Below, piece by piece: positions 1,931-7,600 of a stretch of 7,600 nucleotides of DNA. The notes beneath the pieces are model-generated. The model made no database searches, was not told where the DNA came from, and saw only the letters and a list, made by a program, of their open reading frames with translations. Position 1 is the stretch's first letter. Each line of letters starts with the position of its first letter. Origin of the DNA: a virus (Duplodnaviria; Heunggongvirae; Uroviricota; Caudoviricetes); IMG/VR virus record IMGVR_UViG_2651869755_000012; one strand, 5' to 3'. A program made the translations under genes and the position numbers.

Positions 1931-1951
1931 AACCCGCTTCGGCGGGTTTTT
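1931..1951 (+). terminator. Rho-independent terminator ending the hok transcript
   Basis: Hairpin CCCGC-TTCG-GCGGG (1933-1946) followed by TTTTT (1947-1951). Confidence 0.7.
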
Positions 1952-1962
1952 GCATTAGTCTG

Positions 1963-1992
1963 GTTGACAAAAATAGAAAAATGCGAAAATAT
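1963..1992 (+). promoter_or_regulatory. Putative promoter of the two-gene insert (consensus -35 TTGACA)
   Basis: Perfect TTGACA at 1963-1968; weak -10 candidate AAATAT at 1987-1992 (18-bp spacer) inside an A-rich tract; the first ATG of the module is at 2028. Confidence 0.4.
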
Positions 1993-2027
1993 GTGGTTTA
2001 CGAATTCTAAAAAAAGCGAAACTTGAA

Positions 2028-2678
2028 ATGAATGAAAATCAGTTAGCTCCTTGTTGGGAATTTCAACCTTATCTTGCTGAAAACTATGTTCGCCACTTGT
2101 TGGCGGAGATCGCTAACGTACTTGAGCAGCTGTACTATCATAAGCACGCATTAGACAGCAACTGGTCTGAAGGTGTAAGGGCTTATGATTGGGTCAGAAA
2201 TCATCTTATTCAAAATGAAGATGCAATTCCTGGCCTTGAGATGATTTCCAAGGGGTTGGACTATGTAGTTGCTTTAAATAAAGTTCCGCTACAATTTACC
2301 AAAGATTGCATTAATAACCCCAAAAAGAAACATCGTCTGCGTCGAAATAAAGTAGAGTATGAGCAGCTCTCATTGTTTGGTGATGTTGAGGCTGAGCAAG
2401 ATATTACATGGCGAGTCATAGCTGAGCCTTTTTTATCCGAAGAGGGCGATGGTGAATTAGAGTCCACACTGCCTCGTTGGGAGGTAGCTCTTGTTGGATT
2501 TAATACTTATGGTGCTCAGATTAGTATAGTTTCTCATCAATCTACAGCATCGATGCCGCTTATGCCTCTTGATTATAACACACTCCCTGACGAAGCGGAG
2601 ATTAATAAGGTGCCTCTTCGTCGGCGTACGAAGGATAAAGATTTGGATGTGAGCAGTGATGGAACATCAGGTGAATAA
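2028..2678 (+). CDS. Unknown-function protein (216 aa), first gene of a two-gene module with the downstream HTH-peptidase
   Basis: Long ORF in an AT-rich segment, ATG at 2028, stop TAA at 2676-2678 overlapping the next gene's start by 20 nt. Acidic protein with a basic patch (KKKHRLRRNK); no transmembrane segment or catalytic motif recognised. Confidence 0.6.
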   Translation: MNENQLAPCWEFQPYLAENYVRHLLAEIANVLEQLYYHKHALDSNWSEGVRAYDWVRNHLIQNEDAIPGLEMISKGLDYVVALNKVPLQFTKDCINNPKKKHRLRRNKVEYEQLSLFGDVEAEQDITWRVIAEPFLSEEGDGELESTLPRWEVALVGFNTYGAQISIVSHQSTASMPLMPLDYNTLPDEAEINKVPLRRRTKDKDLDVSSDGTSGE

Positions 2679-3762
2679 CTTCACTGAGTATCGGGGTGAT
2701 AAGCTCAAACTAGCGAGAATGGCTGTTGGGCTTTCTTGTGAAGAGTTAGCCGAAAAAATTGGCAAGACAAAGCAATTCGTTAGCAAACTGGAGAAGGGGT
2801 GCAGGCCATCGGAGCAATGTCTTGAGTTAATATCTTCAGCGCTTATGATTAAGTCCAGTTTTCTTTTTACTGAACGAAAATACGCTCTGGAAAGTGATGT
2901 CTGCCATTTTCGGAGTAAGAAGTCCAGGACTCAAACGCTGACTAATAGTGTATTGGCCAGGGCTGAGATTCTTAATATTATAATTTCTGCTGTTGAAGGT
3001 GAAATCGAATTTCCTGACGTTAACATACCGGAGCACCCAGGGGCTGAATTACTTACTCCGAATGATATTGAGCGAGTGGCAGAAGATTGTCGCCGTGCCT
3101 GGAATTTAGGTCTTGGCCCTATATCATCAATGGTTAAATTGGCGGAGAGTTTAGGGGTAATCGTTGCGCATGTTACGGGAGTCGATGATCGTGTTGATGC
3201 TTTTACTGTTCACAATAACAGGCCTGTTATCATCAGGAACAATGTTAAAAAAAGCATATGTAGATTTCGCTCTGATTTAGGTCATGAATTAGGGCATTTA
3301 GTAATGCATGAGGGCATAACGACAGGTGATAAACTTACGGAATCACAAGCCGATCACTTTTCGAGCGCCTTATTAGTTCCCAGGTTATCTTTCATTAAAG
3401 AATTTCCACGAATACGAGGTAAGCAATTCGACTGGAATGCTCTGGTTGAATTTAAACTTAGATGGAAAATCAGCCTTAAAATGTGTATTTATCGAGCCAG
3501 CGCATTAGGCTTATTGACCCAGGAACAGGCAAGAACTGGCTATATGCATCTTAATTCCAGAGGGTATACGAGAGTTGAACCTGGTGATGAACTTTTGCGC
3601 CCTGAAGAACCCGGCATGCTGGCCGAGGCGATTGAAATGCTGGATGATGCAACCTGGCTAAGAATTCTTATGAAAACTGGCTTGAGCCAAGATTTAATTC
3701 GTGAGTTGTTCTCCATCAACAGACCTATTACAAATCCAAGAAATATTTTCCAGATTGTTTGA
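2659..3762 (+). CDS. Fused XRE-family HTH / ImmA-IrrE (COG2856, M78-like) zinc metallopeptidase, 367 aa
   Basis: N-terminal XRE-type helix-turn-helix (LARMAVGLSCEELAEKIGKTKQFVSKLEKG) and a central HEXXH zinc site (HELGH at nt 3283-3297, within DLGHELGHLVMHEG), plus about 150 aa of C-terminal extension. ATG at 2659 (GTG at 2656 also possible); stop TGA 3760-3762. Confidence 0.8.
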   Translation: MEHQVNNFTEYRGDKLKLARMAVGLSCEELAEKIGKTKQFVSKLEKGCRPSEQCLELISSALMIKSSFLFTERKYALESDVCHFRSKKSRTQTLTNSVLARAEILNIIISAVEGEIEFPDVNIPEHPGAELLTPNDIERVAEDCRRAWNLGLGPISSMVKLAESLGVIVAHVTGVDDRVDAFTVHNNRPVIIRNNVKKSICRFRSDLGHELGHLVMHEGITTGDKLTESQADHFSSALLVPRLSFIKEFPRIRGKQFDWNALVEFKLRWKISLKMCIYRASALGLLTQEQARTGYMHLNSRGYTRVEPGDELLRPEEPGMLAEAIEMLDDATWLRILMKTGLSQDLIRELFSINRPITNPRNIFQIV

Positions 3763-3766
3763 GTAT

Positions 3767-3787
3767 ACCCGCTTCGGCGGGTTTTTT
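3767..3787 (+). terminator. Rho-independent terminator after the two-gene module (same hairpin as at 1932-1951)
   Basis: CCCGC-TTCG-GCGGG (3768-3781) followed by TTTTTT (3782-3787); the 20-mer ACCCGCTTCGGCGGGTTTTT is identical to 1932-1951. Confidence 0.7.
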
Positions 3788-3871: not shown

Positions 3872-4093
3872 ATGGACCCCGAACAGGGGGAGTGCTATTT
3901 ATCTGGAAGGATTCTGTTGATGAAAATCGAAGAATTACGTGAAATTTTTAGTGAAGATGGCCTCTATGCTGTGCGCGTTGAGAATGGGGGTATTACCTAC
4001 ACAGCGTTAATTCCTGATGATCATGTAGTGTTATCTGTTGAGGCATTCATTGAATACTTGGAAAGACTCGGTTTCAAGGTAGTTCGGGAATAA
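3872..4093 (+). CDS. Small hypothetical phage protein (73 aa; alternative start ATG 3920 gives 57 aa)
   Basis: ORF with GGAG at 3861-3864 ahead of ATG 3872; the internal in-frame ATG at 3920 has GGAAGGA at 3904-3910. No motif recognised. Confidence 0.45.
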   Translation: MDPEQGECYLSGRILLMKIEELREIFSEDGLYAVRVENGGITYTALIPDDHVVLSVEAFIEYLERLGFKVVRE

Positions 4094-4152
4094 GTTATAA
4101 TACGTGAGCCAGCCTGAACAACTGGCAACCTGCAGCGCCATTGGAGATGACA

Positions 4153-4425
4153 ATGGCGCATAATTTCAAATTTCGCAATTCTGATTCTGCCTTTGCCAGC
4201 AGGCACGGGTGGCGTTCTCACGCATTCAAATATGACTGGTATCAGCACGATCCCTGTACTGAAGAACAGGCCGAATGGCTGATTCATAACTACCGCAGAC
4301 GTGGATATGAGTTTAGGAAAGCCCTCACCCTCGATTATCGTCACTGGATAATCTACGTCAGACTCCCTTATTCCGAACGCCCACCGCGTCCGTCCCGCAC
4401 ATTCCAGCAACGCATCTGGAGGTAA
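4153..4425 (+). CDS. Hypothetical phage protein (about 90 aa)
   Basis: ORF 4141..4425 in the track (TTG start); I prefer ATG 4153 with TGGAGA at 4142-4147. Stop TAA 4423-4425 lies 1 nt before the next gene's GTG. Trp/Arg/His-rich; no motif recognised. Confidence 0.4.
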   Translation: MAHNFKFRNSDSAFASRHGWRSHAFKYDWYQHDPCTEEQAEWLIHNYRRRGYEFRKALTLDYRHWIIYVRLPYSERPPRPSRTFQQRIWR

Positions 4426-4426
4426 C

Positions 4427-5473
4427 GTGCGGGTATTACTTCGACCTGTTCTGGTACCGGAACTCGGGCTGGTGATCGTTAAGCCGGGCCGTGAATCCAT
4501 GCCGGTATTCCACAATACCCGGGTACTGGTGGAGCCGGAACCGAAAAGCATGCGTAATCTGCCGTCCGGGGTCGTTCCTGCCGTTCGCCAGCCGCTGGCG
4601 GAGGATAAATCATTACTGCCATTTTTCAGCGACGAACGAGTGATTCGTGCTGCTGGTGGCGCTGGCGCATTGTCTGATTGGTTACTGCGCCATGTTAAAT
4701 CCTGCCAGTGGCCACACGGCGATTATCACCACAGTGAAACCGTCATTCACCGTTATGGTACCGGCGCAATGGTGTTGTGCTGGCACTGCGACAACCAGCT
4801 GCGCGACCAGACCTCCGAATCACTCGGGCAACTTGCTCACCAAAACCTGTCTGCATGGATGATTGACGTCATACGCCATGCAATGAATGGCTCGCAGGAA
4901 CGGGAATTATCGCTGGCTGAATTATCCTGGTGGGCGGTCCGCAATCAGGTGGCGGACGCGCTACCGGAAGCGGTATTACGTCGTTCGCTGGGGTTGCGTG
5001 CGGAAAAAATCCGCTCAATGTACCGTGAAAGCGACATCGTACCGGGAGAGCAGACCGCCACCAGCATACTGAAGCAGCGCACAAAAAATCTTGCGCCGCT
5101 GCCTCACGCCCACCAGCAAAACCCGCCACAGGAAGAGACGGTGGTCAGCATTGCCGTTGATCCTGAGTCTCCGGAATCTTTCATGAAACGACCTAAACGT
5201 CGCCGCTGGGTTAACGAGAAATACACACGCTGGGTGAAGACACAGCCGTGTGCGTGTTGTGGTAAGCCAGCCGACGATCCCCATCACCTGATTGGTCATG
5301 GTCAGGGCGGAATGGGGACAAAATCTCACGATATTTTCACGCTACCGCTGTGTCGGGAGCATCACAACGAGCTTCATGCGGATCCTCTGGCGTTCGAAGA
5401 AAAGCATGGTTCTCAGGTTGATTTAATTTTTCGTTTTCTTGATCACGCCTTTGCAACTGGCGTGCTTGGGTAA
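4427..5473 (+). CDS. DUF968 family phage protein (YdfU-like) with C-terminal Cys/His nuclease-like motif
   Basis: GTG start at 4427 preceded by GGAGG (4418-4422). C-terminal region KTQPCACCGKPADDPHHLIGHGQGGMGTKSHDIFTLPLCREHHNELH resembles the YbcO/DUF1364-type motif found in DUF968 proteins of lambdoid prophages. Position (upstream of rusA and Q) matches Qin-type prophages. Confidence 0.7.
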   Translation: MRVLLRPVLVPELGLVIVKPGRESMPVFHNTRVLVEPEPKSMRNLPSGVVPAVRQPLAEDKSLLPFFSDERVIRAAGGAGALSDWLLRHVKSCQWPHGDYHHSETVIHRYGTGAMVLCWHCDNQLRDQTSESLGQLAHQNLSAWMIDVIRHAMNGSQERELSLAELSWWAVRNQVADALPEAVLRRSLGLRAEKIRSMYRESDIVPGEQTATSILKQRTKNLAPLPHAHQQNPPQEETVVSIAVDPESPESFMKRPKRRRWVNEKYTRWVKTQPCACCGKPADDPHHLIGHGQGGMGTKSHDIFTLPLCREHHNELHADPLAFEEKHGSQVDLIFRFLDHAFATGVLG

Positions 5474-5485
5474 AAGAGGTGACTG

Positions 5486-5845
5486 ATGCTCATAGATTTG
5501 GTTTTACCTTACCCGCCGACGGTGAACACTTACTGGCGACGCCGTGGCAGCACATATTTTATCTCGGAGGAGGGAAAGCGTTATCGCCGGGCTGTGGCGC
5601 TTATTGTTCGCCAGCAGCGGCTGAAATTAAGCCTGTCCGGAAGGCTGGCGATAAAGGTGATTGCAGAGCCACCGGATAAGCGCCGCCGCGACCTGGACAA
5701 TATCCTGAAGGCACCACTGGATGCGCTGACGCATGCCGGACTACTTATAGACGACGAGCAGTTTGATGAAATCAATATTGTGCGCGGTCAGCTCGTTCCT
5801 GGTGGGCGGCTGGGGATAAAAATCACAGAACTGGAGTGCGCATGA
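5486..5845 (+). CDS. rusA: RusA Holliday-junction resolvase (crossover junction endodeoxyribonuclease)
   Basis: 119 aa; PYPPTVNTYW N-terminus and PDKRRRDLDNILKAPLDALTHAGLLIDD match the RusA active-site region (PDRRRRDLDN in DLP12 RusA as I recall). SD AAGAGGTGA at 5474-5482. Confidence 0.85.
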   Translation: MLIDLVLPYPPTVNTYWRRRGSTYFISEEGKRYRRAVALIVRQQRLKLSLSGRLAIKVIAEPPDKRRRDLDNILKAPLDALTHAGLLIDDEQFDEINIVRGQLVPGGRLGIKITELECA

Positions 5846-6531
5846 ATAACCAGTATTTACAGTTTGTGCGTGAGCAGCTCATTATCGCCACCGCTGATTT
5901 GAGTGGGGCAACAAAAGGTCAGCTTGAAGCCTGGCAGGAGAATGCCATGTTCGATACAGGGCGTTACAGGCGTAAAAAAATCCGGTACCGCGATGAAGTG
6001 ACCGGAAAAATGATAACGCGGGATAATCCACCAATCCCGGGAAAACAATCGCTGGCGAAGGGGACGTCAATTCCTCTGGTCAGTCAGGTTGCTTTTTCTA
6101 CATCATCATGGCGGCGGGCTGTTTTGTCTCTTGAAGAACATCATAAAGCCTGGTTGTTGTGGTGTTACAGCGGAAATACTTGCTGGGAGTATCAGATCGC
6201 GATAACGCAGTGGGCATGGACAGAATTTAAGACTCACTCTGGTACCAGGAAAATTGCAGGGAAGACACAGGAACGCCTGAAAAAATTAATCTGGCTGGCT
6301 GCACAGGATGTCAGGAGATGGGTTATAGGACATGATATCTACCAGCAACAGGAGCTTGCCCGTCTGTGTGGGATTAAGCCTGACAACTGGAGCCACAATT
6401 ATGTGAGCTACTGGCGTGAAATACTCGACATTTTTATGAACCTCGATACCGAATCTCTGATTTGCACTGTGAAAAGGAGATCTCAACAAAAAGCGGCATT
6501 TTTGCAGCGAGATATTGCAAAAGTCAATTAG
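5842..6531 (+). CDS. Putative Q-like late antiterminator (229 aa)
   Basis: ATG at 5842 overlaps the rusA stop (ATGA, 5842-5845). The gene sits directly downstream of rusA and directly upstream of an intergenic terminator, the canonical place for Q in lambdoid phages. Assignment is by position and size; no diagnostic motif was verified. Confidence 0.5.
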   Translation: MNNQYLQFVREQLIIATADLSGATKGQLEAWQENAMFDTGRYRRKKIRYRDEVTGKMITRDNPPIPGKQSLAKGTSIPLVSQVAFSTSSWRRAVLSLEEHHKAWLLWCYSGNTCWEYQIAITQWAWTEFKTHSGTRKIAGKTQERLKKLIWLAAQDVRRWVIGHDIYQQQELARLCGIKPDNWSHNYVSYWREILDIFMNLDTESLICTVKRRSQQKAAFLQRDIAKVN

Positions 6532-6578: not shown

Positions 6579-6605
6579 AACCCGCTCAAATGTGCGGGTT
6601 TTTTG
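6579..6605 (+). terminator. Rho-independent terminator (tR'-like) downstream of the Q-like gene
   Basis: CCCGC (6581-6585), 8-nt loop, GCGGG (6594-6598), then TTTTTT (6599-6604). An AT-rich promoter-like stretch at 6532-6580 precedes it, with a TATAAA-like hexamer at 6575-6580 (promoter not confidently resolved). Confidence 0.6.
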
Positions 6606-6677
6606 CTTAACTCTGTGGACCTTTTTATCTGTAGTTGTAATATATGGATATTGTTACAATTTAGGTCGGTGAGCTTA

Positions 6678-7355
6678 ATGGAAGAACAGCACGGTAATTA
6701 CTTTATAAAACGAATTCAGTTGATTGGAAGAGGGGCATTTGGCTTTGTTGAACACGTTAAGGTTTACAACCTCAATAAAGGTGAATGCGGGGATTATGCT
6801 AGAAAGGTTTTAGCACCCGAAAAACCAGAGCTTTTGGCGCAAATAGAGCAGTTTAGAAGGCGTTTTAAAAGGGAGGTTGTGTATCAATCACATTGCGTAC
6901 ATAGCAATATTGTTCCTATTTATTTGTGCGATTTGTTTGTTGAGAATCCATGGTTCATTATGGATAAAGCAGAATGTGATCTTGAGCACGAAATAACGAA
7001 CAACCTTCTTACAACAGATCAAAAAATTTCAATAGTGAAAATGGTATTAGATGGTGTAGCTTACATCCATGCCAAAGGCTATTTACACAGAGATATAAAA
7101 CCCTTTAATGTTTTGCGATTTAGCGACGGAACATACAAGGTGTCTGATTTTGGTCTGGTAAAAGATACGAATCCCGAAGGGGATACCACTAAATTGACCG
7201 AGATCGGTACCCGTATGGGAAGTACAAGATATATGGCTCCCGAGATTTTATATAATGCAGAGTATTCAGTTAAGACTGATGTTTATGCTGTGGGACGGTT
7301 AATTGAAGACTTAAATTTAGATGATAAAAAAATAAAGCCTATCATAGCTAAGTGA
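6678..7355 (+). CDS. Eukaryotic-like Ser/Thr protein kinase (Hanks-type), probably C-terminally truncated by IS insertion
   Basis: Gly-rich loop IGRGAFG (6723-6743), catalytic loop HRDIKPFN (7086-7109), DFG (7146-7154) and APE (7236-7244). ATG 6678 follows GGTGAG at 6668-6673; the track's TTG 6603 start lies inside the terminator. Only about 35 aa follow APE, and the stop TGA 7353-7355 is the first 3 bases of the IS terminal repeat. Confidence 0.75.
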   Translation: MEEQHGNYFIKRIQLIGRGAFGFVEHVKVYNLNKGECGDYARKVLAPEKPELLAQIEQFRRRFKREVVYQSHCVHSNIVPIYLCDLFVENPWFIMDKAECDLEHEITNNLLTTDQKISIVKMVLDGVAYIHAKGYLHRDIKPFNVLRFSDGTYKVSDFGLVKDTNPEGDTTKLTEIGTRMGSTRYMAPEILYNAEYSVKTDVYAVGRLIEDLNLDDKKIKPIIAK

Positions 7356-7600
7356 ACCGCCCCGGGTTTCCTGGAGAGTATTTTATCTGTGAACTCAGGC
7401 TGCCAGATCATCGTTTCCGATGGAAGCATAATAAGCTTTTTCTGCTTCTGCCGGAGGAGTATGGCCCAGCCTTTCCAGCAATCGTCGATTGTTATACCAG
7501 TCCACCCACGTGAGTGTGGCCAGTTCCACTTCTGCACGGTTTTTCCAGCTCTTACGGTGTATTACCTCCGCTTTGTAAAGACCATTGATGCTCTCCGCCA
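7353..7600 (-). mobile_element. Terminal part of an IS3-family insertion sequence (IS629/IS1203-like), extends beyond the window
   Basis: Terminal inverted repeat begins TGAACCGCCCCGGGTTTCCTGGAGAG at 7353; the minus strand encodes the C-terminus of an IS3-family transposase. I recall both as IS629-like. Confidence 0.8.
7395..7600 (-). CDS. IS3-family transposase OrfB, C-terminal fragment (5' end outside the window)
   Basis: Minus-strand translation ...AESINGLYKAEVIHRKSWKNRAEVELATLTWVDWYNNRRLLERLGHTPPAEAEKAYYASIGNDDLAA, stop (complement of 7395-7397). WVDWYNNRRL...LGH is the conserved C-terminal motif of IS3-family (DDE) transposases. This is a different frame from the track ORF 7283..7537. 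Confidence 0.8.
   Translation of the reverse strand, partial: AESINGLYKAEVIHRKSWKNRAEVELATLTWVDWYNNRRLLERLGHTPPAEAEKAYYASIGNDDLAA

Follow-up and report, generated by a model that had tools for sequence, protein, structure and literature searches.

The window analysed in this study is a 7,600-nucleotide stretch of DNA recorded as a Caudoviricetes sequence (IMG/VR record IMGVR_UViG_2651869755_000012), and the element in question is a pair of overlapping genes at positions 2028-3762, here termed rmrT and rmrA. The pair is best read as a toxin-antitoxin (TA) cassette of the RosmerTA type that falls in the Vmi480/Vmi470 subfamily and forms a self-contained moron of an Escherichia coli prophage, a reading to which we give a probability of about 0.78 as a whole. 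RosmerTA systems are defined by a zinc-peptidase antitoxin with a partner toxin whose function is unknown (Millman 2022), and membership of the cassette in this group, taken on its own, is very likely. The first-pass annotation, made from the sequence alone, had flagged the pair as an undescribed two-gene module of the defence or TA type. The two-gene TA/defence-type module stands. It is not undescribed, since both proteins match RosmerTA models, all 59 aligned relatives of the toxin match the RmrT model that RmrT itself matches, and experiments published in 2015 showed the homologous Vmi pair to be a TA system. The module is already catalogued and can be recognised by existing models, and the main value of the analysis lies in this correction, by which a supposedly undescribed defence system becomes a standard RosmerTA cassette.

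Assignment of the gene pair to RosmerTA

The first gene, rmrT (2028-2678, + strand), starts with ATG and encodes a 216-aa protein of the Vmi480-like RmrT family (RefSeq WP_001004956.1), and the second, rmrA (2659-3762, + strand), encodes 367 aa from the RefSeq ATG (WP_000401168.1), with an in-frame GTG at 2656 as an alternative start. Both open reading frames given in the first-pass annotation were confirmed, as was the 20-nt overlap between these co-oriented genes when the RefSeq start at 2659 is used, through which the two genes are probably coupled in translation. Between the E. coli and Enterobacter copies, the ratio of nonsynonymous to synonymous substitution rates (dN/dS) is 0.07 for rmrT and 0.02 for rmrA, with synonymous sites saturated (dS>1.2), showing that both are real genes under purifying selection. 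The proposed fusion of an XRE helix-turn-helix (HTH) to an ImmA/IrrE-type peptidase was likewise recovered in RmrA by Pfam, as HTH_3 (E=5e-7, nt ~2704-2844) and Peptidase_M78 (E=6e-11, nt ~3184-3501). The HEXXH motif is intact at H209-E-L-G-H213 (nt 3283-3297) and is followed by an E228-xQAxxF motif; the HELGH residues and E228 are invariant across six aligned RmrA sequences. The C-terminal 80 aa or so form a further region of the protein. RmrA is probably the antitoxin and the autorepressor of the cassette.

The assignment to RosmerTA is based on direct matches to PADLOC models and not on a call by the PADLOC pipeline. RmrT matches the RmrT model PDLC03929 with E=4.6e-25 (its residues 7-209 align to positions 5-195 of a 198-position profile), and RmrA matches the RmrA model PDLC03943 with E=6e-105 (residues 12-351 on positions 2-342 of 370) as well as 13 further PADLOC RmrA models (14 in all), in agreement with the earlier remark that the second protein is like the RosmerTA antitoxin. 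In PHROGs, RmrT belongs to phrog_5786 (E=8e-85) and RmrA to phrog_2439 (E=8e-123). The statement that the first gene product has no recognisable domain therefore holds for Pfam and NCBIfam, each of which gave zero matches to RmrT, and fails for PADLOC and PHROGs. RmrA also hits NF052239 (E=1.5e-45), the NCBIfam model for spr1629/spr1630 of Streptococcus pneumoniae, and it is not an equivalog of that family because its 156 bits lie far below the 335-bit cut-off.

An exhaustive profile search returned about 60 further clusters of RmrT-like proteins of about 200 aa, with sources in Aeromonas, Vibrio, Pseudomonas and Alphaproteobacteria. The RmrT model PDLC03929 is matched by every one of the 59 family members that were aligned (best E=3e-72), and none of the 59 matched Pfam. 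Within this family of toxins of about 200 aa, which spans Gammaproteobacteria and Alphaproteobacteria, the 216-aa protein is divergent.

The link to the experimentally studied Vmi480/Vmi470 pair was drawn through a proxy, a locus of Vibrio fluvialis (L011) that encodes the toxin P0033, and not through the Vmi480 sequence itself. This locus carries a gene for a 199-aa toxin, a 5-bp gap and a gene for a 361-aa HTH-M78 protein, and it adjoins a resolvase gene, all of which agrees with what was published for vmi480/vmi470. Its toxin begins with MTPKPEFY where the vmi480 start primer gives MTKKPEFY (20 of 24 nt match), and its second protein has MDYQANN where the vmi470 primer encodes MIYQAVN. Because the primer sequences match imperfectly, L011 is taken to be closely related to the Vmi pair and not to be the same gene. 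Over full length, the window toxin is 27% identical to the V. fluvialis toxin (E=1e-17) and the window antitoxin is 47% identical to the Vmi470-like protein (E=1e-123). Beside the pair, the V. fluvialis locus (6883-10111) also holds a reverse transcriptase, an AAA_15/SMC-like ATPase and a small opposite-strand open reading frame, which resemble a further defence system carried by that island.

Among the named systems, Vmi480/Vmi470 of V. mimicus MGIVmi1 (PMC4671572) resembles the window pair in having the toxin gene first, an antitoxin made of an HTH and a zinc peptidase, and a toxin without a Pfam domain. Its proteins are of 198 and 362 aa, against 216 and 367 aa in the window; it differs from the window pair in the 5-bp gap that replaces the 20-nt overlap, in residing on an integrative mobilisable island instead of a lambdoid prophage, and in the low sequence identity. 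The RosmerTA system of E. coli OLC-716 shares the order of rmrT followed by rmrA and the HTH-zinc-peptidase architecture, whereas its toxin is of 239 aa and unrelated (E=7), and its phage defence has been verified (Millman 2022). The window toxin is thus not the RmrT verified in that work. A prophage-borne TA system of E. coli E101 (WP_001179380.1/WP_000481765.1; Rousset 2021) also has a domainless toxin upstream of the antidote and was reported to share 33% identity with Vmi480 and 42% with Vmi470, compared with 27% and 47% for the window pair against the Vmi-like pair; it is likened to the window pair by description and not by sequence alignment, and its RefSeq accessions are different. RmrTA of Gordonia phage Kita is phage-borne too and combines an ImmA-type RmrA with a toxin that belongs to no known family; it differs in that its RmrT is membrane-targeted and depolarising (PMC10440598). 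RmrA proteins are reported to be partnered by many unrelated toxins (Ernits 2023, PMC10440598). In Streptococcus pneumoniae, the Xre-peptidase protein of spr1629/spr1630 is a repressor/antitoxin beside a toxin, spr1630, that makes clpX essential (PMC13566846).

Boundaries and leader of the cassette

The gene pair is inserted cargo, as indicated by an empty site in related phages and by a dip in G+C content. A 20-nt hairpin, ACCCGCTTCGGCGGGTTTTT, was found by the terminator scan at 1932-1951 (+ strand), where it serves hok as terminator and marks the cassette's left boundary. An exact duplicate lies at 3767-3786 (+ strand), just past the rmrA stop, and forms the cassette terminator together with a T-run, so that the two copies bracket the cassette; the scan places this terminator-like hairpin with its T-run at 3767-3782. 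In PPompW and in Stx2a-converting phages, the similarity to this region is confined to its two ends; hok (gef) is followed at once by rem, and the hairpin occurs there only once. The G+C content is 41.7% over 1953-3787, compared with 49.3% in the left flank and 50.8% in the right flank. The earlier description of the pair as foreign-looking cargo is well founded on both counts. In Buttiauxella, too, an identical hairpin lies behind rmrA, and in Enterobacter a loop variant takes this place, although the flanks are unrelated; besides the two window copies, the hairpin observations include 4001-4164 of locus L002. Since the hairpin is duplicated around the cassette, single in the empty site and present 3' of rmrA in Buttiauxella, these data suggest that the cassette is inserted or exchanged by recombination at shared terminator sequences.

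The leader of the cassette (1961-2027, + strand) contains promoter elements and two tandem repeats and is conserved across genera. A perfect -35 box, TTGACA, lies at 1964-1969, and a weak -10 element lies around 1985-1992, for which AAATAT at 17 nt or TGcGAAAAT at 15 nt are the options. This putative promoter was not called by the consensus promoter scan because the -10 element is weak. The diverged copies of Enterobacter, Buttiauxella, Serratia and Xenorhabdus begin to resemble the E. coli sequence precisely from GGTTGACAAAA, the -35 box, onward. Between this point and the start codon, the 66-nt leader of the first three genera shares 85-91% identity with that of E. coli, against 66-81% for the toxin coding DNA and only about 45% for the adjoining 100 nt upstream. 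The leader is therefore constrained, and more conserved than the coding DNA. A single promoter for both genes is supported by this conservation rather than demonstrated. Of the shared promoter and shared terminator that had been proposed for the pair, the terminator is confirmed as a hairpin with a T-run, and the promoter only in part, in its -35 box.

The tandem repeats in the leader are 28 nt long, of the form TGGTT[G/T]AC...GCGAAA, and lie at 1961-1988 and 1994-2021 with a spacing of 33 bp. They match at 20 of 28 positions, a level reached by only 3 of 2,000 dinucleotide shuffles, and may be operators for the HTH domain of RmrA. No tandem leader repeats were found in distant members of the toxin family, so that the operator proposal is limited to the enterobacterial clade. 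With its clean boundaries, its conserved leader bearing the repeats and the natural toxin-only disruptions described below, the E. coli copy is a convenient model for studying the regulation and triggering of RosmerTA.

Partner conservation and polarity of the pair

In every distinct context inspected, the toxin gene is immediately followed by a same-strand Peptidase_M78 gene, usually with an HTH. These contexts comprise the nin regions of E. coli, Enterobacter and Buttiauxella, a Serratia site between Q and the holin gene, a prophage of Xenorhabdus, the interval from Mor to the lysis genes in a Mu-like prophage of Aeromonas, two Vibrio sites of which one is an MGI-type island, a locus of Alphaproteobacteria (L015) beside the S subunit of a type I restriction-modification system, and an Allosphingosinicella chromosomal site. 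The first-pass annotation had named a 216-aa gene standing without the peptidase gene as evidence against its proposal; the partner was present in all contexts inspected. Of 5,426 complete genomes of E. coli, 237 contain toxin DNA and 237 contain antitoxin DNA, or about 4%, and rmrA was covered over at least 80% of its length in all 237. Strains 042, ABU 83972, VR50, ML35 and O55:H7 are among the carriers. Two of about 240 cassette occurrences in E. coli are plasmid-borne instead of chromosomal. In species-representative genomes, only two loci were found. No toxin homolog was detected by tblastn in 50,697 deposited phage genome records, and the DNA matches in deposited phage genomes cover only the flanks of the cassette.

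In at least two E. coli strains, the toxin gene alone is damaged. In FDAARGOS_1249, rmrT is cut by IS5 (L019, 586-2145), leaving a 140-aa remnant beside an intact rmrA, and in PS1Thumoskin9 (hit H56), rmrT is only 78% covered, in two pieces, with rmrA again intact. Disruption restricted to the toxin is what a toxin-first polarity predicts, and the two cases are few. More direct support comes from homologs: Vmi480 is lethal in E. coli and is rescued by co-expressed Vmi470, while vmi470 cannot be deleted alone and the peptidase gene alone is harmless (Luo 2015, PMC4671572). Moreover, an rmrA deletion was untransformable (Millman 2022), and rmrA is essential in three Pectobacteriaceae (PMC13566846). 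By analogy with these systems, a functional TA cassette with the toxin encoded first is quite probable.

The reversed polarity, in which the HTH-peptidase would do the harm and would be neutralised by the 216-aa protein encoded upstream, is modelled on PD-lambda-2, whose Xre-peptidase alone is toxic and is rescued by the upstream protein; COG2856 has also been listed as a predicted toxin (Makarova 2009). Set against this are the lethality of the upstream gene, the harmlessness of the peptidase alone and the undeletable peptidase gene in the Vmi pair, the untransformable rmrA deletion and the essentiality of rmrA in Pectobacteriaceae, the disruption of only the upstream gene in E. coli genomes, the non-toxicity of pneumococcal COG2856 proteins and the lack of likeness of the 216-aa protein to HigB. 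Such a reversal is accordingly very improbable. PD-lambda-2 itself (Vassallo 2022) resembles the window pair as an E. coli Xre-peptidase fusion downstream of a toxin-like gene that confers defence by abortive infection, and differs in comprising three genes, with a HigB-like first protein, a P4-antitoxin-like third protein and the reversed toxicity. The cassette was not assigned to it, as RmrT gave no HigB/RelE match, no PD-lambda-2 PADLOC model was matched, and the next gene, rem, lies beyond the terminator.

A different role for RmrA was weighed in light of its structural relatives. The HTH resembles those of SinR, CapH, ImmR and DdrO, and the solved structure nearest to the peptidase core is CapP (7t5t, E=1e-4), so that RmrA looks like a fusion of both halves of repressor/protease switches. 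CapH/CapP, ImmR/ImmA of ICEBs1 and DdrO/IrrE are alike in joining an XRE HTH repressor to an M78 zinc peptidase; in these systems two separate proteins are involved and the peptidase cleaves the repressor, so that a different operon is de-repressed, whereas RmrA is fused and paired with a toxin. From these resemblances, and from the naming of the peptidase family after ImmA/IrrE, it could be supposed that the pair is a prophage switch: upon DNA damage a repressor would be cut by the peptidase, by which induction or a further operon would be controlled, and the 216-aa protein would be regulated cargo or a sensor and not a toxin. The location speaks otherwise: the cassette sits in the nin region (after Q in Serratia) and not in an immunity or integrase region, the repressor module of the prophage is elsewhere, and the cassette moves between unrelated elements as a unit from promoter to terminator. 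Furthermore, a homolog of the partner is lethal when expressed, and neither the window nor the flanking prophage contains CBASS genes. An ImmR/ImmA-type switch was rejected on account of the fused domains, the position in the nin region away from the repressor module and the autonomy of the cassette, and a CapH/CapP regulator on account of the missing CBASS genes nearby and of capP and capH PADLOC matches far weaker than those to RmrA; a switch of either type is extremely unlikely.

Proposed mode of action and the prophage neighbourhood

RmrT is an acidic protein of about 25 kDa with a predicted isoelectric point of 4.9. No transmembrane segment was found, the maximal Kyte-Doolittle hydropathy over 19 residues being 0.84, and the protein is predicted to be soluble. 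A membrane toxin like that of phage Kita was excluded, because RmrT lacks a hydrophobic segment. An AlphaFold2 model built from a deep alignment has a mean predicted local distance difference test score (pLDDT) of 86 and a predicted template-modelling score of 0.76, and replaces an earlier model from a shallow alignment with a pLDDT of 62. It begins with two long helices and a three-stranded meander, which are followed by two short helices and three further strands; the acidic tail (residues ~175-216) is disordered. No structural relative of RmrT with a confident match was found. A toxin family without a known structural relative, in a cassette present in well-studied E. coli strains, is where the residual interest of the system lies.

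On these grounds the following mode of action is proposed. A single promoter with its -35 box at 1964 would drive rmrT and then rmrA, and one hairpin would terminate both. RmrT, as a soluble alpha/beta protein, would poison the cell by a non-membrane mechanism, and RmrA may neutralise it through its zinc-peptidase and C-terminal regions, while its XRE HTH is probably a repressor of the operon that acts at the two promoter-overlapping tandem repeats. The ClpXP protease of the host would probably help to restrain RmrT, keeping it inactive or degrading it. An incoming phage would upset this balance, and free RmrT would then arrest the cell, so that the infection would be aborted and the population of lysogens, and hence the prophage, would be protected.

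Several of these steps are supported by work of others on homologs, namely the toxicity, the rescue, the undeletable antitoxin and the dependence on ClpP and ClpX. clpP is essential in E. coli E101 owing to the prophage TA system (Rousset 2021), and in Pectobacteriaceae clpX is essential only in strains that carry RosmerTA (PMC13566846). Phage defence has been shown by others for RosmerTA systems with other toxins. For the present clade we infer anti-phage activity, autoregulation at the repeats and proteolytic neutralisation. The signal-triggered proteolysis suggested in the first-pass annotation, by which the partner would be released or activated, can be hypothesised for this clade and for RosmerTA generally. 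The chance that the cassette confers measurable phage defence is, by analogy with those systems, slightly better than even.

The defence role has to be weighed against that of a functional TA module serving only for addiction, which would stabilise the prophage or island by post-segregational killing and have no anti-phage role. The direct tests of this toxin family are TA assays in an integrative mobilisable island and the clpP-essentiality of a prophage TA system, no phage challenge has been reported for the family, and the module is always on mobile elements, all of which fit addiction. Other RosmerTA systems defend against phages, however, and relatives of the cassette adjoin defence genes, such as the type I restriction-modification S subunit in the alphaproteobacterial locus and the reverse transcriptase and AAA ATPase in V. 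fluvialis. Moreover, moron slots of lambdoid prophages are typical of superinfection-exclusion and defence cargo, and the neighbours here include hok/sok and a PD-T4-6-like kinase. An exclusive addiction role is for these reasons rather unlikely; the two roles are compatible and not mutually exclusive.

A more specific version of the proposed mechanism holds that RmrT is a soluble enzymatic toxin of unrecognised fold, curbed by the RmrA peptidase and by ClpXP proteolysis, and that phages trigger it by blocking or flooding proteolysis. In that case RmrT may contain at most a remote restriction-endonuclease-like core without a canonical catalytic motif; in the PD-(D/E)XK nuclease superfamily, this core has the order alpha-beta-beta-beta-alpha-beta, and D...(D/E)xK is conserved on its strands 2 and 3. 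If this proposal, which we regard as doubtful, were true, the logic of toxin degradation would be the opposite of that in classical type II TA systems, with no labile antitoxin.

The entire 7.6-kb window matches E. coli chromosomes at 100% and belongs to a lambdoid prophage of this species, in whose nin region the cassette is flanked by hokD and rem. Upstream of the cassette are genes for a DUF977 protein (189-629) and for QueH (783-1469, RefSeq start 804; Pfam E=1e-65), an epoxyqueuosine reductase, so that a tRNA-modification gene is carried as phage cargo in the nin region. These are followed by hokD/sok (1537-1862), identified by the Rfam sok model (120 bits) and a Hok/gef Pfam match. This type I TA system lies directly upstream of the RosmerTA cassette, and two unrelated TA modules thus stand side by side. 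Downstream of the cassette are a rem-like gene (phrog_340, 3872-4093) and genes for a phrog_1212 protein (4141-4425), a DUF968 protein (4427-5473), RusA (5486-5845) and antiterminator Q (5836-6531), and then, within 6603-7600, a PD-T4-6-like Ser/Thr kinase gene starting from the ATG at 6678. The kinase gene is interrupted at ~7357 by an insertion sequence (IS) of the IS3 family, of which a fragment occupies ~7358-7600 on the - strand. In strains free of the IS, the kinase is of 254 aa, and a gene for a PP2C phosphatase comes after it (L018). The kinase is probably a second defence-type moron of the same prophage, inactivated here.

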